DNA of 64,000 nt from assembly GCA_042567505.1 (NCBI GenBank), contig JBHPJW010000002.1:17686-81685 (forward strand), written 5' to 3'. The notes under the pieces were generated by a model. The model was not told where the DNA came from. It worked only from the letters and a program-made list of their open reading frames with translations, and did no database searches. Of the stretch, positions 51,751-63,085 are shown in pieces. The stretch is from Fibrobacterota bacterium (GTDB taxonomy: Bacteria; Fibrobacterota; Fibrobacteria; UBA11236; JADFYW01). Positions within the stretch are counted from its first letter, which is position 1, and each line of letters opens with the position of its first letter. The translations under genes were made by a program, and so were the position numbers.

Positions 51751-51782
51751 TTGCAAAGAATGTGATATTGTAAATGGAGCTT

Positions 51783-51813
51783 AAAAAAGGAGGGGAAAAC
51801 CCTCCTTTTTTTT
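51783..51813 (-). terminator. Rho-independent (bidirectional) terminator after the cytochrome cluster
   Basis: AAAAAAGGAGGG-GAAAA-CCCTCCTTTTTT with A/T runs on both sides. Confidence 0.85.
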
Positions 51814-51837
51814 ATGCAGTTTTTTTTGAATTAACTC

Positions 51838-52557
51838 TTAAAACTCTACCGTTACCTTTGCTTCCGCGCCGGCTTTGACTTCTACGTCCACGGTCTTTTC
51901 GCCCAGTTTTTCATGCCAGACTTTGAGTTTGTGCTTGCCGGCAGGTACATTTTCAATCTTAAACGTTCCTTTGGCATCTGTGACCGCGCCGTATGGATGG
52001 GGAAGTACCCAGATCCAGCCCTCTTCCCAGTCATGGGGATCACATCCAATAAAAACCAATCCTTCTTTTCTCAAAGGTTTTTTGTGTTTGGCGACCATAT
52101 CCTTTTTAGGCAAAGCCTGGTTGATGAGGCTCTGCTTTTTGTCGCCTTTCATCAAATAATAATGAGCGGTGTGGTTGATGGGATCGCTGTTTTTATAGGT
52201 CATGGTCCCGCCTTTGGGGGCAATAATCACCCTGGGTTCGTTCCGGCAGGCAACGTTATCGATAAAAGCCGGGGTAGCCTTGTCGAGCTTGGCGCCTTCT
52301 TTTATTCCCTCGATAAAGGCGGCCGCGTATTTGATCTCACCTGCGGCTGAGATCACATAATGCTCGGCAGCTATCTCCTCGCCACAAAACTCCTGATCCG
52401 CAGTTACTTTCAGCATGGGATCCTTGGGGATTTCCCCCTTTTTCTTTACCACACCTGAAATTGTGCCGCCGTCCTTAACCTCAATTTCCTTATATTGGGC
52501 AACGGCAGCCAGTGCCAGACAAACCAGGAGAGCCATAGTGATTTGAAACATCTTCAT
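51838..52557 (-). CDS. Periplasmic cupredoxin-like / carboxypeptidase-regulatory-like domain protein
   Basis: Signal peptide; GGTISGVV, N.DPINHTAH, GCDPHDW...HPYGAVTD..G.F.IENVPAG.H.L.VWHE motifs. Confidence 0.75.
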   Translation of the reverse strand: MKMFQITMALLVCLALAAVAQYKEIEVKDGGTISGVVKKKGEIPKDPMLKVTADQEFCGEEIAAEHYVISAAGEIKYAAAFIEGIKEGAKLDKATPAFIDNVACRNEPRVIIAPKGGTMTYKNSDPINHTAHYYLMKGDKKQSLINQALPKKDMVAKHKKPLRKEGLVFIGCDPHDWEEGWIWVLPHPYGAVTDAKGTFKIENVPAGKHKLKVWHEKLGEKTVDVEVKAGAEAKVTVEF

Positions 52558-52619
52558 TGAAAACCTCCTCTTTTATGTTATTCTATTTAATATCCTTATT
52601 TTTTTTAAAATTTTCCAAT

Positions 52620-53783
52620 TTAGAAGAAACCAACAAACCTCAGGATGACCTGGTCCTGGTTCTCAAATTGAGCCTGGGGAATGAAGCGGTTCATCCGGTA
52701 AAAAAGAGCCAGCTCGGTGAATTGGGTGACAAAAGCCTCCACTCCCACAGTCAGGCGGTCCTGGCCGTCCCTATTCCAGGCTAAGCCGGCCTCATTTCCC
52801 ATAATAGTGGTGTTTCTGTCAAAAAACTCATAGGTGGTTTTGTAATTCAAGCCGTCCATGATATGATAATTGAGTTCCAGAAACCCCGCGAACTGGTCCC
52901 TGTTTTCTTTGGTGATGATGTCACCCTCACCCATAAGAGTGAATTTACCGAAGTTAGTCCCGGCAAAGACTCCCCAACGGTAATCATCTCCCCAGAAATT
53001 AGTTCCTTCCAAACCGGGGTGGTCCTCGGTCCAACGCTGGAATGATCCCCCTACCCTCCACCTGCGGTATACCACTGTAGCCACCGTAGAAAACCTGGCG
53101 TCGGTCAGGTTGGCGATGAGGGAAAAAGGGCCCGGCTCAAATCCAATTTCACCGGCCATGTCCCGGGTAAAATAGGTGTACCCTGTTTTTGCGCGGATAA
53201 AGGCGTCATCATCATACAGGCGCAAACCATAGGGAAGCAGCATGTATCCGATTTTCACATAAGAATTCAGGGGAAACTTCATCATGGTCCAGTATTCACG
53301 CCAGCCGTTCTGCATCATGTCCGCGTCCGCGTAAAACAGGACAAAATCCTGAATCAGGTCCATCTGAAAATAAAGGTCGGCCTCTTTAATATTGGTCTTA
53401 TTATCTCCCAGGACTTTGGGAAGGGTGTCGAGTCCGGTTATGGGATCAGTGGGCTGGTAATCAAGGGAAGTGGCATTATCCACTCTCAAGTTTGCGCCGA
53501 CGGAAAGCATTTCGCTTATCTGTCCGCCAAAAAACGCCGGTTTTTTAGATGGCCGAATGGATTTCATTTTAAGCTTGTAATGACCGTACTGCACTCCGAA
53601 ATCAGTACGCTTCCCCCCGCCTGATGCGTTCACATGGCAAACCACGCACTTGAGCCCGGTGCGCACAGCCATGTAGGGCTCTCCGTACGCTGAAAAACCG
53701 AAAAAAAACAGGACAAAAAGGGACACTAAGGGGAAAGCATTCCTCCATCCCGTGAACATGAGTTTTGTTATCCGGTTATTCAT
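52620..53783 (-). CDS. Mono-haem cytochrome fused to a beta-barrel (Cyc2-like cytochrome-porin)
   Basis: Signal peptide, then EPYMAVRTGLKCVVCH...GGGKRTDFG; remainder is alternating amphipathic strands ending in Phe (VILRFVGFF). Confidence 0.7.
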   Translation of the reverse strand: MNNRITKLMFTGWRNAFPLVSLFVLFFFGFSAYGEPYMAVRTGLKCVVCHVNASGGGKRTDFGVQYGHYKLKMKSIRPSKKPAFFGGQISEMLSVGANLRVDNATSLDYQPTDPITGLDTLPKVLGDNKTNIKEADLYFQMDLIQDFVLFYADADMMQNGWREYWTMMKFPLNSYVKIGYMLLPYGLRLYDDDAFIRAKTGYTYFTRDMAGEIGFEPGPFSLIANLTDARFSTVATVVYRRWRVGGSFQRWTEDHPGLEGTNFWGDDYRWGVFAGTNFGKFTLMGEGDIITKENRDQFAGFLELNYHIMDGLNYKTTYEFFDRNTTIMGNEAGLAWNRDGQDRLTVGVEAFVTQFTELALFYRMNRFIPQAQFENQDQVILRFVGFF

Positions 53784-54540
53784 TTATACTTGCCCTGGCT
53801 CCTTCCCAGATCCATAATGAGCAGAGAGCTATCTTGTCATCCGGCACGGGAGCAAGGGTCCCGGCATACGGCATGGCCTCCCCCCCTGTTTTCGGTGTCG
53901 CCTGACCGGTCCAGGCCTTCAACACGGTCAACAGATAACTGCTGTCCGGTTCAAACGGTAAAACCCTCCACCTGGGTTGTTCATCCGGCAGCAGGTAAGT
54001 GGGCTGGTTCACCAGCAGGCCAATGATAGTATCCTGAGTCGCCTGAGAATTATCCAGCACCAGGCCGGCGACGTCAAATATGGGCGGCCCGACACTCCCG
54101 GTATTCTGCCAGCCAGTGGCTCCCAGCAGATGGCATCCCACGTCACATCCATACTGGGTCCAGAGTGGATGTATTTCTGAGAGATAATCAACAGTGGGCT
54201 CGAAGCAGGAGTCTCTGGGGTCCTCACAGGCTGCGCCCGCACCGCAGGTATCTACAACACACTGAGTTGTGATATCCGTACATGTGTCCGACGCCATCAT
54301 ACAGCTGTCATAACAAACCTTCAGACTATCGGTGACATCACAGAAACAGGGGTGTGTCGGATTGGTGGAATCACACGCAAAGCAGGCATCATCCATGGGC
54401 CAGGGAAAATCAGGATCACAGTTCCCGTCGGGCAGGAGCCCTGCACCGCCTCCGCAGTTTTTCATATTGGCAGTGCACAACAGCAAAACTCCGGCCAGCA
54501 ACAGCAGCAACTTAATGTTCTTCTTCGTCACCCTGTCCAT
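53776..54540 (-). CDS. Cys-rich exported protein with planctomycete-type cytochrome c-like C-terminal domain
   Basis: About 14 Cys in the N-terminal half; CDVGCH (CX3CH); P..PD.SYL....K...MP......I....WI.EGA C-terminus. Confidence 0.6.
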   Translation of the reverse strand: MDRVTKKNIKLLLLLAGVLLLCTANMKNCGGGAGLLPDGNCDPDFPWPMDDACFACDSTNPTHPCFCDVTDSLKVCYDSCMMASDTCTDITTQCVVDTCGAGAACEDPRDSCFEPTVDYLSEIHPLWTQYGCDVGCHLLGATGWQNTGSVGPPIFDVAGLVLDNSQATQDTIIGLLVNQPTYLLPDEQPRWRVLPFEPDSSYLLTVLKAWTGQATPKTGGEAMPYAGTLAPVPDDKIALCSLWIWEGARASINE

Positions 54541-54542
54541 GC

Positions 54543-55628
54543 CTATTTCCTGGTTCCTTTGGTCACCTCAGTATCCTGACCGAAGAGCTGGTAGAAGAAC
54601 CCCGGTTTTGTGGTAAGCGACTTGAGGTAATGCACTAGGGCCCATTTCCTGCGCACCGCAACCTCATCCTTGGTGCCCTCCTCGGACATGCTCTTTATCT
54701 CTTCCTCACTGGGCTGCAACGAGAGATATTCCTTGAGCCCGTCCACATCGCTTTCCGGGAAATCATTAAAATACTGTTCCAGATCTACATTGTTGCCATA
54801 CAGGAACAGGTCCGCGTAGGCGGCCATGGGTGTGCCGTCCATCCCGGTATTCATGGTTTTGTAGATGCTTTTGTTGTCCGCCCCCCCTCTGTAAACGCCC
54901 CGGGTAAAATCAAAGGCCTCTATGGAAAAACCATCATCATCCTTGAGCGTGGGAGCCGAAGGCCCGTCTCCCTTACCGCGGGTGCCGTGGCAGGTCCAGC
55001 AACCCAGTATCATGTATATATATTTCCCCTCTTTGAGGATGTTCTCATCAGCGGGAAGTTCCTGGGGAATATCAATGGGTTCACCCGCCCCGTATTCCTG
55101 GAAATCACCGCAGAAAGCCTTTGTATAGGCCAGCACGTCCCTCAGTTCCTGCTCGCTCAGCAGCTCATTGTAGGCCGGCATAGTAGTTTCCTGTATGCCT
55201 TCGGCGATAGCGAGGTAAAGGTCCTCATCCGTGGGCAACTCTCCCGAAGGGGTGGAACGGAATTTATAGACGCCTTTGGTAAAATCCCGGGGACGGGGAT
55301 TGAGGTACTGCCCGGCCACGCCGTTGCCGTCACCCGCACGCCCGTGGCAGCCTGCGCAGGCATCATTATAAACCCTCTTGCCGCGGATGAGTTCGGCGCC
55401 CTGTCCGCTGGTTTTAGCCGCTTCAGCGCGAAGTTCGGATTTGCTCGCCTCTATGGCCTTAGAGATTTCTTCCCTTACGTCAACCTGGCTTGGTTGCGGT
55501 TTGTCGGCTTCAAGGGCTGATTCTTCACTGTAGGAAGCAACAACCCCAGCCAGAATAAAAACCCGGAAAAAAGAGGCATAGCGCAACAGCCTGTAAATTC
55601 CGTACCGGTTTATGAGGTTACTAGGCAT
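54543..55628 (-). CDS. Di-haem c-type cytochrome
   Basis: CAGCH and CWTCH, each followed by PRDFT/AFDFT...TPM/TTMP class I motifs. Confidence 0.9.
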   Translation of the reverse strand: MPSNLINRYGIYRLLRYASFFRVFILAGVVASYSEESALEADKPQPSQVDVREEISKAIEASKSELRAEAAKTSGQGAELIRGKRVYNDACAGCHGRAGDGNGVAGQYLNPRPRDFTKGVYKFRSTPSGELPTDEDLYLAIAEGIQETTMPAYNELLSEQELRDVLAYTKAFCGDFQEYGAGEPIDIPQELPADENILKEGKYIYMILGCWTCHGTRGKGDGPSAPTLKDDDGFSIEAFDFTRGVYRGGADNKSIYKTMNTGMDGTPMAAYADLFLYGNNVDLEQYFNDFPESDVDGLKEYLSLQPSEEEIKSMSEEGTKDEVAVRRKWALVHYLKSLTTKPGFFYQLFGQDTEVTKGTRK

Positions 55629-55766
55629 CTAAAAAAATGGCTTTTTTTCGTCCCCTGTCCCAACCCACAGGGACCTAAATTTCCCGTAAAAATCTTCAAA
55701 AAAAACAAAAAATAATATATAAAAAAAACAAACGGATTTTAAACATCTAAAACCATTTGAAAAACT

Positions 55767-57488
55767 TTAAATTATGCGATTCTTTGTGACAATTAGACAA
55801 AAAAACGGTTGTCTTAATTCCGGACTAGGCGTTTTTTTTCTTACCGCATATACTAGCAGAAGCTCAAGCAAGAGAACCCCCAGCGCGCATTTGATTGCGG
55901 TGATCAGAGGAGCGGCAGGAACCGGGGGCTGCATGTAGAGAGAATACCAGGAAGTTATCCCCCTGGTGTTGCCTCGTTCCTTGCTGAATCCGTCCCATAC
56001 GGAAAAAGCAACAGGAATGAATTCATCCTCTTGAAAAGTCTTTTCACCGGTTCTTTTCCTGGGCCCTTTAAAAATCACCTGCCATTCCCCATCTTTATAA
56101 TTGGAAACGACTTCGATTTCGCCATCTTCCCTTGTTATATTATCACTTCCCTTACCCAGGAAAAAACCGGCGCTTTGTTCTGCCAGATCGGCAAACCATA
56201 TGTCAACCGACCGTCCGCTATCCCCAAAAAGGAAATAAGGCTTTCGAAAACCTTGCGGCAGCCTGGAAGGAAACTGTACCGCTACCGCGTCCGAGAACAA
56301 TTCCGACGGCTTCTCAGCATCAGGGTCAAACCTGGGCACCTCCACGGCCGGGCTGTTCTTTCCCTCCTTTTCGGCGCTCATGTCGTGCCAGGACAGCATA
56401 AGCGCGATATGACTGCCATTATATACCGCTTTGACTTCAATGGTATGCACACCTGGAAAAAAGGTCCGGCCTGGCTCAATGATCTGGCCCACTACCGGAA
56501 GACGGGCGGCCACTGCGTTTTTAAAAATCGACTGTCCCCGGCTTAGATCAATCACTCCCCCGACAGGATGGGCGTTAACCTGGGTTACATACGCGGTATC
56601 ATTATCACCCATGGAATAGATGTAGTTCACTAGATGCCACAGGTCCGCGGTAACTATGAGTTCACCATAAGCGGCCATGGGCGTTCCATCCATGCCCGCG
56701 TAAATTGTCCTAAAAATATCCCTGCGGTTGCCCCCGCCTCTAAAGGTCCAGAGCCTGGTCAGATCCGCGGGCCTTATCATTTTTCCCGAAGCATCTTCAG
56801 AAGTGGGCGCCGACAGCCCGTCCCCTTTCCCGAAAACCCCGTGACAGCTGGCACAGCCGTTCTTCTCATATATTTTCAGACCCTTTTCTGCAGATCCCTG
56901 GCTGAAAGGCGGAGCATCCGGAATGGGGAAAGGATCTACCAATACTTCTGAATCAGCGAAGACTTCGTCAAATGTTTTCATATAGTACACCACTTCGGAA
57001 AGCTCGCGGTCCGATAAACGGGACCAGGGAGTCATTCCGGTAAACGGCATTCCCCTTCTGGTTATTTCTATCAAATCCTGAGTGGTGGGCATCTCTCCGG
57101 AAGGAGTAGTGCGGATTTTAAACGAACCGGAAGTTAGGTCCCTGGGCATGGGTATGAGAAAAGGGGTGGCCGGGCCCTGTCCGTCCCCGGCTTCCCCATG
57201 ACAGCCCGCGCATTTTTTCTGGTATAGTTTTTTACCTGATTCCCGCTGAGCGACGGTACCTGTGTCAGGTGCAACAGCATGCACCAGACCGCAGAAGCAC
57301 AGAGCTAAGGTTAAGCATGCATTTCTAAATAATATATACCAAACACTTGCCATTGCGGCCGGAGCCCGGCCAGTCCCATGATCCGGGCATTCAGAATAAA
57401 AGCGCTTAAGACTCCGGGTCCCGGCCGTGGCCTTGGCAGGCAAGCCCGGAGTTCCAGAACATATTTTTTTAAGATACCTAACAGTCAC
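55767..57488 (-). CDS. Di-haem cytochrome c fused to an EB_dh (DMSO-reductase-type haem b) domain with C-terminal TM anchor
   Basis: CAGCH and CASCH; WHDMS...SDAVAVQF, W.V.F..PR and PVAFSVWDG...ERG motifs. The start may be downstream (about 57353). Confidence 0.85.
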   Translation of the reverse strand: MTVRYLKKICSGTPGLPAKATAGTRSLKRFYSECPDHGTGRAPAAMASVWYILFRNACLTLALCFCGLVHAVAPDTGTVAQRESGKKLYQKKCAGCHGEAGDGQGPATPFLIPMPRDLTSGSFKIRTTPSGEMPTTQDLIEITRRGMPFTGMTPWSRLSDRELSEVVYYMKTFDEVFADSEVLVDPFPIPDAPPFSQGSAEKGLKIYEKNGCASCHGVFGKGDGLSAPTSEDASGKMIRPADLTRLWTFRGGGNRRDIFRTIYAGMDGTPMAAYGELIVTADLWHLVNYIYSMGDNDTAYVTQVNAHPVGGVIDLSRGQSIFKNAVAARLPVVGQIIEPGRTFFPGVHTIEVKAVYNGSHIALMLSWHDMSAEKEGKNSPAVEVPRFDPDAEKPSELFSDAVAVQFPSRLPQGFRKPYFLFGDSGRSVDIWFADLAEQSAGFFLGKGSDNITREDGEIEVVSNYKDGEWQVIFKGPRKRTGEKTFQEDEFIPVAFSVWDGFSKERGNTRGITSWYSLYMQPPVPAAPLITAIKCALGVLLLELLLVYAVRKKTPSPELRQPFFCLIVTKNRII

Positions 57489-58288
57489 TTGGACCCCTCA
57501 GGCCTGAAGCCGGTAAAATCATACAGGTAGATAATAGCATCCCATATTTCTTCTTCAGATAAAAAAGTTTCCCAGGCCGGCATGGCAGAGGCCCAGGGAG
57601 CGGCTTCCTCGGGTATTTGCGGTCCTTTGGATATCCGCCAGAACAGGTACGGCTCGCTCAGGCCTTTGAGGACGGAAGGATCGGCAAGGCTGGCCGGACG
57701 GGGATAAAAGCCGTGGGAAAAGTTTCCCTGCCCCCGGAGGTCAGGCCCATGACAGAACACGCAGTTTTCATAATAAACCCGGACCCCGTTGGCTATATGT
57801 TCCTTGAATTCTTCCGGCTTGTCTTTTTCCAGTTTCCGGAAGGGATTATCTCCTTTTTTCAGGTGTACCGTTTTTCCCCTGAAAATGATACTGTCCGGAG
57901 AAGCCGGATGAATGGTCCGGTCAAAGACCGGCGCCCGGCCCCTGGCTGATTGGCTCACATACACCCTTAATCCTATCAGAACAGGAAGGGCGATGAGAAG
58001 TATTGTCATCATGAACGGGTGTTTGTTCCAGCTGAGGAAACCGGCTGCGGTCTTTGATACCGCTTTCAGCTCCTCAGATTCAATTGCCGTACCGTACACC
58101 CCAAGGCAGGCCGTGACCACCAGCATGAAGAGGCTGATGACGGACCCGGGCAGGGCCGGAGAGAACCCGAACCTGAACATGACGAAAGCGGCCAGCAGCC
58201 ACAGCAAAAGCCTTGAAAGGAGGCTTAGCCGGGTAAACTTCAGGGCTGCAAGCGCTGCGATCACGGCAAAAACGACCAGCAGGTTCAT
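57485..58288 (-). CDS. Membrane-anchored mono-haem cytochrome c
   Basis: About four TM segments, then RTIHPA, YYENCVFCHG, YLFWRISKG and PWASAMPAW motifs. Confidence 0.88.
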   Translation of the reverse strand: MNLLVVFAVIAALAALKFTRLSLLSRLLLWLLAAFVMFRFGFSPALPGSVISLFMLVVTACLGVYGTAIESEELKAVSKTAAGFLSWNKHPFMMTILLIALPVLIGLRVYVSQSARGRAPVFDRTIHPASPDSIIFRGKTVHLKKGDNPFRKLEKDKPEEFKEHIANGVRVYYENCVFCHGPDLRGQGNFSHGFYPRPASLADPSVLKGLSEPYLFWRISKGPQIPEEAAPWASAMPAWETFLSEEEIWDAIIYLYDFTGFRPEGSK

Positions 58289-58827
58289 TGGCCGGTTCCT
58301 TTCCGCGACACCAGAAAATCAACTATGGCCTTGATCTCCCGGACCGTGGCCTGCTGATAAAACTCAGTTGGAACCAGGCTGTCGCCCGTCACCCGGACCG
58401 GACATCCGGGAACAGTTGGCTCGCCGGGAGTTACTATCGCTTGATACAGCCCTGCGGCCCCAAGTCTTTTGCCCACATCATAAAAACCAGGTCCTTTCAG
58501 TGTCTTGTCTTGTTCCAGACTATGACACGTGAGGCATTGATACTTGGCCAGTACGGCTCCGCCTAAGGAATCCCGGACAGCGGCAGCTTCCGCCAACACG
58601 CCTGAATCCGCAGGCGGAGAAGTATCCGGTTGAGCTGACTGTACTGTATCCGACTGAGTTTCTTCCCGAGGCGATTCAAGGGTCTTCCCAGATTTTTTCT
58701 CAGGAGATTTTCCGGAGGGGCCCGGACCGGCCATGGGCGTATCGCTCTGGGGTACTAAAGTAGCCAGGCATACATAGGAAAATGTCACGGCCAGGACAAG
58801 GAAGGTTATCTGCACAAGGATTCTCAT
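58285..58827 (-). CDS. Mono-haem cytochrome c
   Basis: N-terminal TM/signal segment, VPQ motif, CLTCH, KGP....VG.R. Confidence 0.8.
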   Translation of the reverse strand: MRILVQITFLVLAVTFSYVCLATLVPQSDTPMAGPGPSGKSPEKKSGKTLESPREETQSDTVQSAQPDTSPPADSGVLAEAAAVRDSLGGAVLAKYQCLTCHSLEQDKTLKGPGFYDVGKRLGAAGLYQAIVTPGEPTVPGCPVRVTGDSLVPTEFYQQATVREIKAIVDFLVSRKGTGQ

Positions 58828-58828
58828 T

Positions 58829-60898
58829 CTATGTGCTCCTGCCGGATTGTTTCATGTTCTCGGGTGATAGATATGACAACCACAGGATAAAAGCCATAAC
58901 AGCGAAAAAAGCCAATGAGGCAATTGCCGTCACTTTTCCCGCATAACCCAGGGCAGGGAGGGAACCCACCGCCGACAGATCTCCGACAATGCCCGCAACG
59001 TGCCACCCCTGCCGCAGGACATGACGCGCGTAGGCTGTCATTCCCAGGGCCCATGCCAGAGTGGCCGCCAAAATAAAAATCATGTACTGGGCCCGTGCAG
59101 GGGCTTCTCCCCATTTTACTTCCCGGTTTGTCTCCGCGTCTTTATACATCAAGGCATTGACCGTGAAGGTGACCGCTACCGCCAGAACCAGGATGGAAAG
59201 TTGGGCAGCCAGAATACAACCGCAGACTTCCGGTGCGGCATAATACTGATAGACACTCAGGCCCGTCACCACGGCAGCACAGATCCCCAGAACCGAGATT
59301 TGGGTGATGAGGCCAATCCTTGCCCAGGAAACCACCGGTTTTTTGTTGATGTTCCAATACATAAGAATGCTGATGAGCGTACCGATGACTAAGATTATGC
59401 CTGCCGCGTTTTTAAACGGCATATGTCCCATCGCTTCCAAAAAAGGATGAACCTTCGCACCGGTATCGTGCAGTTCCTGAACTGTATAGGCTGCCACGCC
59501 GGGAGTCACCCGCACCGCCAGACATACTGCCATCATGGCCATCATGTTTTTAAGATGTTTCCTCAGACGTTCTGTCCCTCCCGTCCTTTCCAAACATGCC
59601 CATAAATAAAAGTTGGCTGCCAGGAAAACCGCCCCTGTCAGGATTGCCAGCATGAACACCGCATCTGACAGGGTTTTCTGGCTGTCCCCGCCAGCTACGG
59701 TTTGCGTAAACATGGTAATACCTGCGTTCTGCCAGCCCCCGGTAAGGAATAAAAGCAGGAAAGCACCGCCAGAGGTAAAAGCCCCGGCACAGGCGGCCCA
59801 GTCATAATAGCAACGCTCTTCTTTCTCTTCCGTCCTTAAGAACCTGTATGCGCCACAGGCTCCCGCCACCGCACCGGCAAAAGCAATATTGGCGATGAAA
59901 CTGTTTACATTGAGATACATCCACCCGGGATCGACCATGGCCTTCAACAGGCCGATTGTCTTTCCTGGAGCCGCGCCTCCCTCGGGGCTGTTCATAAACG
60001 AAAGCCAGCTGTTTATGACGCCCAGTATTCCCAGCCCGGCCAAAGTCAATCCCAAACCTGTGAGCAAATGCGCTCGCGGAGATAACGTTTCCCACCCGTA
60101 GTGATACAGAAACAGGCACGCCATTTCCGCCAGGATAAAAACGGCCAGCGGGAGGATGGTCCAGCCCAGCACATACATCAGGTAATTGGAGAAATCCGGG
60201 TACAGAAAAAAAACAGCCAGCAACAGCAGCATGCCCGAGGCCAGCGCAAACATACATCCTGAAAACAAAAGCCGACCGCCCTCAAAGGCCAGTCTGAGAA
60301 ATCTCTGGTCACCCGATTTGGCCCCTAAAAACTCTGCGCCCATTATGACAAAAGACATGCCGGACACAAACGCCAGGAACAACAAGAACAGCTGCGCTGC
60401 AATCCATAAGGGAGCCCTGGCCCCGATTACCGGAAAACTGCGGCTCCCGGACCGGCAGTCCTTATATTTTAATGAAGCGGGATCCTCGGCCAGCATTGCC
60501 AGAAGCATTTTTTCAATGTTTGCATCATCCAGGTCAGGAGAGGGCTCTTTGGGCAGGGTTCCCCAGACACCGCTTCCGCCCTTTTTTATCCGCTCACTCA
60601 AATAAGGGAGGTTCTCAACATCATACTTGTGCGATATCTCAGCGTAAGAGGGACCCTTTCCAGGCTGATCTTGGAAATGACAGGTGTTGCAGTTGCTTTG
60701 TTCCATCAGGACCATGCCCTCTTCCGCCAGGGCGATTTGTTCCCCAGATAAGCGGGATGGGGAAATCCGCTTTTCATATAACTGAAAACCGAGCAGAAAC
60801 ATACCATAGGCAAGAAATACAAGAAGAGCAAGCACAGATAAATAGGTGAGGCTTGTGGTCCAGAGTGAAAAAGGGCCTTGTTTGCTTTGGGTACTCAA
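58829..60898 (-). CDS. Cytochrome bd subunit I-like (CydA-like) polytopic protein with an N-terminal cytochrome c domain
   Basis: CNTCH domain; WIAAQL, E..CLFLYHYGW, INSWLSFMNSP, FIANIAFAG and ARHVLRQGWHV motifs of bd-like proteins. Start is TTG at 60898 (AGGAG RBS) or TTG at 60982. Confidence 0.75.
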   Translation of the reverse strand: MSTQSKQGPFSLWTTSLTYLSVLALLVFLAYGMFLLGFQLYEKRISPSRLSGEQIALAEEGMVLMEQSNCNTCHFQDQPGKGPSYAEISHKYDVENLPYLSERIKKGGSGVWGTLPKEPSPDLDDANIEKMLLAMLAEDPASLKYKDCRSGSRSFPVIGARAPLWIAAQLFLLFLAFVSGMSFVIMGAEFLGAKSGDQRFLRLAFEGGRLLFSGCMFALASGMLLLLAVFFLYPDFSNYLMYVLGWTILPLAVFILAEMACLFLYHYGWETLSPRAHLLTGLGLTLAGLGILGVINSWLSFMNSPEGGAAPGKTIGLLKAMVDPGWMYLNVNSFIANIAFAGAVAGACGAYRFLRTEEKEERCYYDWAACAGAFTSGGAFLLLFLTGGWQNAGITMFTQTVAGGDSQKTLSDAVFMLAILTGAVFLAANFYLWACLERTGGTERLRKHLKNMMAMMAVCLAVRVTPGVAAYTVQELHDTGAKVHPFLEAMGHMPFKNAAGIILVIGTLISILMYWNINKKPVVSWARIGLITQISVLGICAAVVTGLSVYQYYAAPEVCGCILAAQLSILVLAVAVTFTVNALMYKDAETNREVKWGEAPARAQYMIFILAATLAWALGMTAYARHVLRQGWHVAGIVGDLSAVGSLPALGYAGKVTAIASLAFFAVMAFILWLSYLSPENMKQSGRST

Positions 60899-61020
60899 AC
60901 TCTCAGTTTCTCCTGATTTTGTAACCTCTAACCCCGGCCTTCCCGCAAAGGCCTGACCACACACACACTTTTTATCGTGCAATAATTAATCCAGGGGACT
61001 GGAAATAACCGGTAAAAAAG

Positions 61021-61903: not shown

Positions 61904-63085
61904 ATGTGGAAGGCCGCCGCCAAACATAACGTCATCCGGACGCTGATCTCTTACCACCTGACCACGGCCTGTCTGCTGCTGCTGCTGGCGCTCACCTTCT
62001 GGGGAACGCTGTACCAGGTTGATCATGGCCTGTACGCCGCCAAGCAGAGGTTTTTCAATTCCTGGTTTTTTTTGATCCGGGATGTTCTTCCCTTTCCCGG
62101 GGGCAGGCTGGTTTTATGGATAGGGTTTATCAATCTGACGGCCGTCACTTTGTTCCGGTTTTCCTACAGGTGGTCCAAGGCGGGACTAATCCTCACGCAT
62201 CTGGGCTTATTGGTGCTTCTGGCCGGGGCCAGCGTAACGTTTCACTTCTCCGAGGAATCCAGCCTTACTTTCGAAGAAGGAGAAGGCGCCAATGTATCCT
62301 ATGATTACCACGAGTGGGAATTGGCCGTCTGGAAGCAGGAAATAAGAGGCGACACCACCATCAAATATACAGAAGCCCACAGCATCACCAACCTTATTGC
62401 CGGCGATAAAATTTCTTTCAGCGAAGTCGGAGCGGAGGTGGAGGTACGGGAAGTCCACCAAAACTGCCGGGCCTTAAAGGGAGGGACGCCCCCCCAGGTA
62501 AGCGGCGTCTTGAGCCCGTCGGGCATCACAGGGTTGGAGCCGGAGAAAGTTTCATCAACCCAGCCCCATAATCTGCCCGGCCTTATCATTGCAACGGCCT
62601 TCGCGGAAGGCGACATCCAAACGGTAAAACTAATTATCCTCTACGCGGCGGATTTTCGCCCGGCTCCGGTAATCATCCGGAACGCCCCGGTGTATTTTAT
62701 GCTGAGGCGGAAAGCATACATTCTGCCCATCACCTTAACCCTGCTGGACTTTAAGAAAACCGAGTATCCCGGGACCATGATACCGAAAAGTTTTGAAAGC
62801 AGGGTAGTGATGCGAAAGCCTGAACTGGAACGGGAAGTGTTAATTTCCATGAACAAGCCCCTGCGCCATCATAATTACACATTTTATCAGTCGTCCTATT
62901 CACAATCTGAACACGGAGAAGTCTCCACCCTTTCGGTGGTACGCAATCCCGGACGGCTGTTGCCTTACATCGGCAGCCTGATAATTTCACTTGGCCTGTT
63001 TATTCATTTCTGCCTGATGTTGTGGAAATACGCAAGGCGTAAAACCATGCAAACTCATCACCCTGAACCAAGCGCGAATGACTAA
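61904..63085 (+). CDS. resB: ResB/Ccs1-like cytochrome c biogenesis protein (System II)
   Basis: GTLYQ...G, FFNSWF, G..L.HLGL..LL, ISMNKPLR...Y.FYQSSY and LSVV.NPG..LPY motifs. Confidence 0.82.
   Translation: MWKAAAKHNVIRTLISYHLTTACLLLLLALTFWGTLYQVDHGLYAAKQRFFNSWFFLIRDVLPFPGGRLVLWIGFINLTAVTLFRFSYRWSKAGLILTHLGLLVLLAGASVTFHFSEESSLTFEEGEGANVSYDYHEWELAVWKQEIRGDTTIKYTEAHSITNLIAGDKISFSEVGAEVEVREVHQNCRALKGGTPPQVSGVLSPSGITGLEPEKVSSTQPHNLPGLIIATAFAEGDIQTVKLIILYAADFRPAPVIIRNAPVYFMLRRKAYILPITLTLLDFKKTEYPGTMIPKSFESRVVMRKPELEREVLISMNKPLRHHNYTFYQSSYSQSEHGEVSTLSVVRNPGRLLPYIGSLIISLGLFIHFCLMLWKYARRKTMQTHHPEPSAND

Follow-up and report, generated by a model that had tools for sequence, protein, structure and literature searches.

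The rus operon of Acidithiobacillus ferrooxidans, which has the gene order cyc2-cyc1-orf-coxBACD-rus, brings together an outer-membrane cytochrome of the Cyc2 type, a c4-type dihaem cytochrome, a cupredoxin and a terminal oxidase. We analysed a cluster of eight genes (g1 to g8) that shares these components and is located on the reverse strand at positions 51838-60982 of a 64,000-nucleotide stretch of DNA, referred to as the window, in contig JBHPJW010000002.1 of a Fibrobacterota bacterium (GCA_042567505.1; G000 in the following). The cluster is a Cyc2-like haem-porin module nested in a Nitrospira-type bd-like oxidase operon. Whereas the rus operon belongs to an acidophile and contains an aa3 oxidase, the present cluster is found in neutrophilic Fibrobacterota-like metagenome-assembled genomes (MAGs) and contains a bd-like protein of the OR-N type; it additionally encodes an EB_dh protein and membrane cytochromes, and its cupredoxin carries an extra beta-sandwich. 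Fibrobacterota are known mainly for polysaccharide degradation, and the cluster adds metal oxidation as a candidate trait for one order of this phylum. In the literature that was searched, no description of the operon was retrieved, and Cyc2 and bd-like proteins were mentioned together only in work on Ca. Manganitrophus.

The porin encoded by g7 is comparable to two kinds of described outer-membrane conduits. Cyc2 proteins (Mariprofundus Cyc2PV-1, A. ferrooxidans Cyc2, Leptospirillum Cyt572) share with g7 a signal peptide, one CXXCH motif immediately behind it and a 16-strand barrel of the OprP/OprO type, and they have a dihaem cytochrome c and a cupredoxin as neighbours. They differ from g7 in the haem region, where g7 has EPYxAxRTGxKCxxCHxNxxGGGKR instead of the AxPxFAR[QK][TY] and PxL motifs, and in the barrels, the sequences of which are not detectably similar. 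In the MtrCAB, PioAB and MtoAB systems, a haem protein with a beta-barrel likewise carries electrons across the outer membrane, but these conduits consist of 26-strand barrels with separate decahaem cytochromes and can reach solids, whereas in g7 one polypeptide supplies both the single haem and the 16-strand barrel (PMC8406198).

At the inner membrane, g1 is homologous to the OR-N oxidases, such as the NIDE0901-type proteins of Nitrospira defluvii and TO_1 of Ca. Manganitrophus, and shares g3-like and g4-like (EB_dh) neighbours with N. defluvii genes. The arrangement in the window differs in that there is a single CydA-like gene with a fused N-terminal cytochrome c and no CydAA' pair, and in that the Cyc2-like module is nested among the oxidase genes. 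OR-N bd-like oxidases, whose electron donors and activity are unproven, occur widely in Nitrospirota, Nitrospinota and Ca. Manganitrophus, and the Nitrospira proteins have been treated as putative, not yet characterised cytochrome-c-oxidising O2 reductases (bioRxiv 10.1101/2021.01.16.426971; PMC10839748; PMC12342949; PMC9040806). By nesting a Cyc2-like cytochrome among such genes, the operon offers a testable donor path from metal through cytochromes and cupredoxin to an OR-N oxidase.

Gene order and distribution of the two modules

The eight open reading frames (ORFs) are co-oriented and were recovered at the coordinates given in the initial annotation of the window:

58829-60982, reverse strand: g1, 717 aa (689 aa from the gene caller's start), CydA-like protein with a fused cytochrome c domain
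58285-58827, reverse strand: g2, 180 aa, membrane-anchored monohaem cytochrome c (CLTCH)
57485-58288, reverse strand: g3, 267 aa, membrane-bound monohaem cytochrome c
55767-57488, reverse strand: g4, 573 aa, dihaem cytochrome c with an EB_dh domain
54543-55628, reverse strand: g5, 361 aa, dihaem cytochrome c, first gene of module B
53776-54540, reverse strand: g6, 254 aa, monohaem protein
52620-53783, reverse strand: g7, 387 aa, Cyc2-like haem-porin
51838-52557, reverse strand: g8, 239 aa, cupredoxin

A motif scan of these proteins identified eight CXXCH haem motifs (g1, g2, g3 and g7, and two each in g4 and g5) and one CX3CH motif (g6). The gene set, the motif counts and the domains named in the initial annotation were confirmed by ORF, motif and domain searches, and the predicted trans-envelope architecture was supported, with a haem-porin in the outer membrane, cytochromes and a cupredoxin in the periplasm, and a bd-like protein in the inner membrane.

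The genes are drawn from two modules. Module A comprises the CydA-like g1, the membrane cytochromes c g2 and g3, the dihaem-c/EB_dh protein g4 and the cupredoxin g8. Module B comprises the dihaem cytochrome c g5, the monohaem protein g6 and the fused monohaem 16-strand porin g7, and is placed between g4 and g8 of module A in the window. Both modules also occur on their own, module A without the porin at loci L002-L004 (from other lineages), L031 and L034, and module B without a bd-like gene at loci L005-L008, L010, L012, L032 and L033. The composite cluster with identical gene order is present at loci L024-L030 and L035.

We compared the locus with a set of 41 related genomes. A word-based homologue search for g1 yielded only 5 relatives, and the rest were supplied by a search of the genome collection. 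At least 8 further genomes contain the eight genes in identical order, namely G004 (GCA_015232855.1, from the same family as G000, with the cluster on contig L009), G015, G016, G017, G021, G028, G030 and G031, which argues that the arrangement is not due to chance. Modules A and B are located at separate places in G002 and G003. Across the order, g7 accompanied the bd-like gene in each of the 15 genomes that have the latter, and 13 genomes contained g7 only (Fisher p = 0.0015, phylogeny not corrected). Within the phylum set, the g7 family was confined to the order of the window, where it was present in 28 of 39 genomes as compared with 0 of the 257 others.

Some neighbours of the separate modules may be mentioned. 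The stand-alone module B loci are bordered by sigma-54 response regulators and histidine kinases (L006:16232-19009; L005:10434-11840; L006:11519-15932), and L006 also encodes a 925-aa protein with faint Pfam matches to MtrC and multihaem cytochromes and a type IX secretion sorting tail. At the module A locus L002, from outside the phylum, the g8-like gene is followed by a gene for a COX2/CuA-type protein (L002:15615-16289), which hints that bd-like modules pair with copper electron carriers.

The haem-porin, its partners and the proposed route of electrons

The g7 protein consists of a signal peptide, followed by EPYMAVRTGLKCVVCH and a 16-strand beta-barrel that ends in GFF. The haem motif, CVVCH, is at residues 46-50 after a hydrophobic N-terminus, and CXXCH does not vary among 31 members of the family. 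Proteins of this family are about 360 aa in size, with the invariant motif EPYxAxRxGxKCxxCHxNxxGGxR straight after the signal peptide and usually F at the C-terminus; g7 keeps 51 of the 52 family-invariant columns. We retrieved 1,564 representative clusters (50% identity) at E <= 1e-3 and 814 at E <= 1e-10. Neither g6 nor g7 had a match in Pfam or NCBIfam, and a sequence search of the PDB with the g7 profile gave nothing meaningful. The AF2 model of g7 has 16 strands (pLDDT 76), and Foldseek ranked OprP (2o4v, E 3.5e-11) first and OprO (4rjw) eighth, both of which are templates reported for Cyc2 as well (PMC8406198).

As a reference for Cyc2, we used 55 motif-defined proteins from the genome collection (Mariprofundus, Zetaproteobacteria, Acidithiobacillus, N. 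defluvii and others). Profile-profile alignments of the g7 family with this reference yielded hhalign probabilities of 98% (global) and 95% (local) over the full length and 95.9% (E 5e-9) for the mature haem region alone, as compared with 1.3% for a reversed control, while hmmsearch scores were 7-23 bits. In the motif region, the two families agree at P, A, T and G and in the distance from Pro to Cys, but not at F-A-R-[QK]. These comparisons, together with the modelled fold, suggest that g7 represents a large unnamed family that is remotely related to the Cyc2 Fe(II) oxidase. At 387 aa, g7 is longer than most members of its family, which at about 360 aa are under the 365-aa filter of FeGenie. 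Screens for Cyc2 by motif and length cut-off would miss the family, so that surveys of iron oxidation may undercount. A regex scan of the whole G000 genome revealed no canonical Cyc2 motif.

Three further proteins of the cluster are predicted to be periplasmic or exported. The g5 gene encodes a c4-like dihaem cytochrome c (CAGCH and CWTCH; PF00034, PF13442) that keeps all 44 invariant columns, and g6 a Cys-rich, secreted or anchored monohaem protein with the atypical motif CDVGCH, the orthologues of which share the conserved domain IxPIF..C..CH...MP...WI..GA. The g8 protein has a cupredoxin domain and a C-terminal CarboxypepD_reg-like beta-sandwich (model pLDDT 88), with Foldseek matches to amicyanin, plastocyanin and an N. 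maritimus cupredoxin; H129, C172 and H175 are invariant in its family, and the axial M178 is present in more than 90% of the members. Genes similar to g5 (E 1e-44 to 1e-56) and to g8 were found behind the canonical Cyc2 genes of Acidobacteriota, Gemmatimonadota, Chloroflexota and N. defluvii. Cyc2, dihaem c and cupredoxin thus look like a conserved three-gene neighbourhood, in which the latter two serve as a general Cyc2 partner set. This neighbourhood, in which the g8-like cupredoxin has a CarboxypepD_reg domain, was seen at loci L036, L040, L041, L046 (N. defluvii), L051, L053, L100, L140, L150 and L153.

At the inner membrane, g1 matched the Pfam model Cyt_bd_oxida_I (PF01654, E 3e-13) at positions 3-223 of 418, which is the N-terminal half of the model, and residues 8-152 of E. 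coli CydA (hhalign probability 95%). Both alignments end before the Q-loop region, and the equivalent of E. coli Glu99 is kept as E286. The N-terminus consists of a membrane anchor and a fused c551/c552-like haem c domain (CNTCH; PDB 2d0s, E 1.6e-14), and a scan for transmembrane (TM) segments identified about 13-14 hydrophobic segments in the protein. The g1-family profile matched four genes of N. defluvii (best E 4.7e-207), two of which have g3-like and g4-like neighbours, and the kinship to Nitrospira bd-like clusters put forward in the initial annotation was borne out. By sequence, g1 is classified as an OR-N-type cytochrome bd-like inner-membrane subunit that is strongly diverged in G000. 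The g3 protein carries a monohaem cytochrome c domain (CVFCH; PF13442, PF00034) at its C-terminus in addition to four hydrophobic segments, and it has orthologues in every related cluster and in N. defluvii.

The g4 protein combines two cytochrome c domains (CAGCH and CASCH; PF00034 twice) with an EB_dh domain (PF09459, 62 bits against a cut-off of 33.3), a haem b domain resembling the gamma subunit of type II DMSO reductases, and a C-terminal TM segment at residues 528-546; it keeps 38 of 39 invariant columns. The match to TIGR03477 (E 4.5e-19) had a score of 68.6, which is below the cut-off of 169.85. An EB_dh domain, as in NxrC, and a bd-like membrane protein are also features of the NXR clusters of Nitrospira, Nitrospina and anammox bacteria, but no NxrA/B-type molybdoenzyme gene was present in the window cluster or detected in related clusters. 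Genes for a molybdopterin alpha or FeS beta subunit that could serve g4 were also absent from the cluster and undetected in related ones, where phmmer searches with g1-g8 revealed no extra conserved gene. The initial annotation had likewise found no molybdoenzyme catalytic subunit. An NXR-type or other molybdoenzyme complex was rejected because no cluster contained a catalytic subunit.

As an explanation of the whole, we favour, with moderate confidence, a self-contained respiratory chain that spans the envelope, was put together from two older modules and leads from a soluble metal, likely Fe(II), to O2. By analogy with Cyc2, a reduced metal in solution, most likely Fe(II), would enter the 16-strand pore and give up electrons one at a time to g7. 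From there they would move via periplasmic g6, g5 and g8 to the membrane-anchored g4, g3 and g2 and lastly to the bd-like subunit g1, which in the relatives most likely reduces O2. This model parallels the Cyc2/TO_1 pathway proposed for Ca. Manganitrophus (PMC9040806). The anatomy of two modules, its conservation, the missing tie to acs genes and the fast evolution of g1 and g2 were observed directly, while the electron donor, the acceptor and the direction of flow are inferred. The minerals, electrodes or partner cells that the initial annotation had named as substrates are unlikely, since single-haem Cyc2-type porins are thought to react with dissolved ions only (PMC8406198).

The chain would probably supplement energy or detoxify Fe(II) and O2 rather than support autotrophy, since most genomes that carry it have oxidases but neither RuBisCO nor ACS. 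Haem-copper oxidases (HCO) were found in 38 of the 41 relatives, while ACS (PF03598) and RuBisCO-like genes were each found in 2 of 41, in both cases G000 and G004. Lithoautotrophic Fe oxidation as a general role was rejected, as the cluster-bearing relatives are without RuBisCO and ACS.

Flow in the opposite direction, from the membrane and periplasm via g7 to soluble Fe(III) chelates or Mn(III) and with the bd-like protein as the entry point, appears very unlikely, although haem and copper carriers are reversible in principle, G000 has many multihaem cytochromes and could be an anaerobe, and Cyc2 homologues are present in many organisms without known iron oxidation (PMC8406198). Carriers such as c551/c552-like and c4-like cytochromes and cupredoxins usually have a high potential, all characterised Cyc2 proteins are, to our knowledge, Fe(II) oxidases, and the relatives that bear the cluster are oxidase-rich. 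In addition, OR-N proteins are reported to be without the quinol-binding site (bioRxiv 10.1101/2021.01.16.426971).

We also consider it quite unlikely that the cluster is a periplasmic scavenger of O2, NO or peroxide that draws on general cytochrome c pools, with a porin that moves a small solute and not electrons. Canonical bd oxidases also act in O2 and NO detoxification (PMC10839748), and the carriers already own other oxidases. However, a redox role for g7 is favoured by its Cyc2-like N-terminal region and by the CXXCH motif, which is invariant and lies at the porin mouth, and module B exists without any bd-like gene.

Divergence of the inner-membrane end in G000

Several observations weigh against a chain from dissolved metal to O2, beginning with the porin. 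The barrels of g7 and Cyc2 alone were not significantly alignable (hhalign probability 1.7%), and it is the N-terminal 40 residues that produce the profile-profile signal, so that the case for homology is made by the haem region and the fold. The AxPxFAR[QK][TY] motif is absent from g7, which has G-E-P-Y-M-A-V-R-T-G-L-K-C in its place, and CXXCH is not followed by PxL (VNASGGGKRT in the window, N-x-T-G-G-G-K-R in the family consensus). Since both motifs are lacking, we place g7 outside Cyc2, as a divergent sister family that probably works like it. We know of no g7-family protein or OR-N oxidase that has been characterised biochemically, and most carriers appear to be heterotrophic, which makes a role in energy conservation putative.

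The other observations of this kind concern the copy in G000, where the chain may work differently or not at all. The equivalent of E. coli His19 in g1 is Phe199, while 10 of 11 homologues have His and L004 has Gln, and g1 keeps only 91 of the 164 columns that are invariant in the 11 homologues (73 lost, 55% kept). The g2 protein, at 180 aa, has its first haem domain deleted, whereas orthologues are about 275 aa in size with two CXXCH motifs. The one-residue insertion that turns the g6 motif into CX3CH is seen only in the window, and every identifiable orthologue has CXXCH at this site. Finally, the axial Met of g8 is replaced by Glu178 in the window; Glu is found in G004 as well.

In leave-one-out comparisons, the other g1 homologues kept between 164/210 and 164/164 invariant columns. 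Among the replacements in g1 are H360 and R361 of the family-invariant NIHR, which reads NVNS with N and S at these positions, and the fused cytochrome c domain has a Lys in place of the Met ligand. In a maximum-likelihood tree, g1 of the window was sister to orthologues of the same family (support 82/89), with a terminal branch of 3.49 as compared with a median of 0.32, about 7-10 times the length for the orthologues. Replacement by a paralogue was rejected on the basis of this placement, which argues that g1 is a rapidly evolving orthologue in spite of its very long branch. The ratio of the terminal branch of the window to the median was 7.4 for g1, 3.9 for g2, 2.2 for g3, 1.5 for g4, 1.0 for g5, 1.1 for g7 and 0.8 for g8. 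Thus, evolution is accelerated in g1 and g2, whereas the conserved g4, g5 and g7, with normal branch lengths, indicate purifying selection on the outer part.

An additional gene is missing at this end. A gene for an AhbD/NirJ2-like radical SAM/SPASM protein that includes a PCP_red domain (TIGR04545, E 9e-92, below the cut-off) borders the bd-like module in all ten loci of the relatives and in L002 and L003 from other lineages; examples are L009:8147-9406, L024:15127-16392, L025:10135-11421, L031:12490-13761, L002:8697-10004 and L003:1857-3155. No such gene is located beside the cluster in the window, tblastn revealed no remnant in the window, and there is no orthologue in G000, where the paralogues are 23-28% identical. 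Since the gene adjoins every bd-like module examined, there is a hint that OR-N bd-like oxidases need a specially modified tetrapyrrole.

Because of the long branch of g1, the replacement of its His19 equivalent and other invariant residues, and the loss of the haem domain from g2, the terminal step in G000 is uncertain. The inner-membrane end, that is g1, g2 and the lost radical-SAM maturase, has been remodelled or is decaying, and O2 reduction by this copy is doubtful. Neither HCO nor a canonical cydA was detected in G000, a MAG that is 66% complete. NrfA (PF02335, E 2e-120) is encoded in this genome alongside numerous multihaem cytochromes (C158:185-2136; C163, several ORFs; C126:901-2160; C221:4876-5715; C24:972-2153; C170:75228-77108), which point to anaerobic respiration independent of the cluster. 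Adjacent to NrfA and partly overlapping it is a tetrahaem ORF, NrfH-like by position, with no match in Pfam, and G000 also has NrfD-multihaem fusions and cytochromes with 16, 12, 10, 8 and 7 CXXCH motifs.

One interpretation of this divergence is decay: the oxidase end of the cluster would have lost its function after a shift to anaerobic life, and the whole chain would now be an unused relic. The loss of invariant residues and the branch length of g1, the missing haem domain of g2, the replaced Met ligands in g8 and in the cytochrome c domain of g1, the CX3CH of g6, the absence of the radical-SAM gene and of detectable HCO and cydA, and a repertoire of NrfA and multihaem cytochromes typical of anaerobic respiration are all consistent with decay. 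We nevertheless regard it as rather unlikely, since all eight ORFs are intact, g1 has remained open over 717 codons with its hydrophobic segments kept, which would be unlikely under neutral drift, and g4, g5 and g7 have retained 38/39, 44/44 and 51/52 invariant positions with normal branches.

The outer half in G000, a genome that may lack any oxidase (the half consists of the Cyc2-like porin, the dihaem cytochrome c and the cupredoxin), might instead have been re-wired from O2, with the remodelled g1 and g2 feeding metal-derived electrons into an anaerobic chain, for example nitrite reduction by NrfA, or into a membrane pool. We think this unlikely; if true, Fe(II) would be oxidised anaerobically along a Cyc2-type route and, more generally, OR-N bd-like oxidases would be recognised as dedicated terminal oxidases of a Cyc2-like metal-oxidising pathway. 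For G000, partial decay and a re-wiring towards an anaerobic acceptor both deserve real weight, while the intact ORFs and the conserved outer module speak against decay of the whole chain. That the inner-membrane end is eroded step by step in a single genome offers in any case a natural test of which components the chain can do without.

Position of the cluster beside the Wood-Ljungdahl genes

Directly downstream of g8 are genes for MetV/MetF, CooC, CooS, a NuoF-like protein, AcsB and AcsC/D. The adjacency of CODH/ACS genes reported in the initial annotation is therefore real, and it had been taken to mean that the chain ties an extracellular donor or acceptor (a mineral, an electrode or a partner cell) to the C1 metabolism of the Wood-Ljungdahl (WL) pathway. 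A gap of 408 bp separates the cluster from the WL genes, which run on the same strand, and the only carriers of ACS among the 41 genomes, G000 and G004, both own the cluster. However, at least 7 other genomes have an identical cluster and no ACS, and in G004 the cluster and ACS are on different contigs, with the radical-SAM gene rather than WL genes after the cluster. Synteny across the relatives thus showed that the cluster is widespread without acs genes, the distribution that the initial annotation had itself named as contradicting the link: the composite cluster is present in at least 9 of the 41 genomes, compared with 2 for ACS. Moreover, high-potential c-type, cupredoxin and bd-like carriers would not be able to reduce ferredoxin or CO2 without reverse electron transport, and the confinement of single-haem porins to dissolved ions does not fit with a solid or cellular partner. 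A functional tie to the WL pathway is largely refuted by this distribution, and we consider it highly improbable. Since many related Fibrobacterota carry the cluster without WL genes, its position beside CODH/ACS looks incidental.

The boundary between the two gene sets contains a hairpin, and the opposite flank contains ResB and CcsA, divergent from the cluster, and a gene for a secreted protein:

51777-51811, reverse strand: terminator-like hairpin GGAGGG-UUUUC-CCCUCC between an A-run and a U-run, about 30 nt past the g8 stop codon
61268-61900: unannotated 210-aa secreted protein, before ResB
61904-63085, forward strand: ResB (PF05140, E 5e-18), upstream of the cluster and divergent from it
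from 63078, forward strand, beyond the end of the window (contig C112): CcsA, 671 aa in the contig, with the Trp-rich motif WGRFWGWD

The sequence at 51765-51840 of the reverse strand folded with a dG of -17.1 kcal/mol (z -3.1). The hairpin was revealed by folding, while a consensus promoter and terminator scan was uninformative and did not list it. A terminator-like hairpin at this site speaks against a functional continuity of the cluster with the WL genes. Taken together, the hairpin after g8, the missing radical-SAM gene and the different flank in G004 make the start of the WL genes, just after g8, look like a rearrangement breakpoint.

On the other side of the cluster, the 671-aa ORF is presumably CcsA-like, to judge from its WGRFWGWD motif. 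ResB and CcsA are system II cytochrome c maturation genes and are possibly associated with the cluster in function. Elsewhere in the two genomes with ACS, the RuBisCO_large matches are weak (G000:C190:4791-5291, E 2e-24; G004:C317:13452-14291, E 3e-49) and probably represent form III/IV-like proteins.

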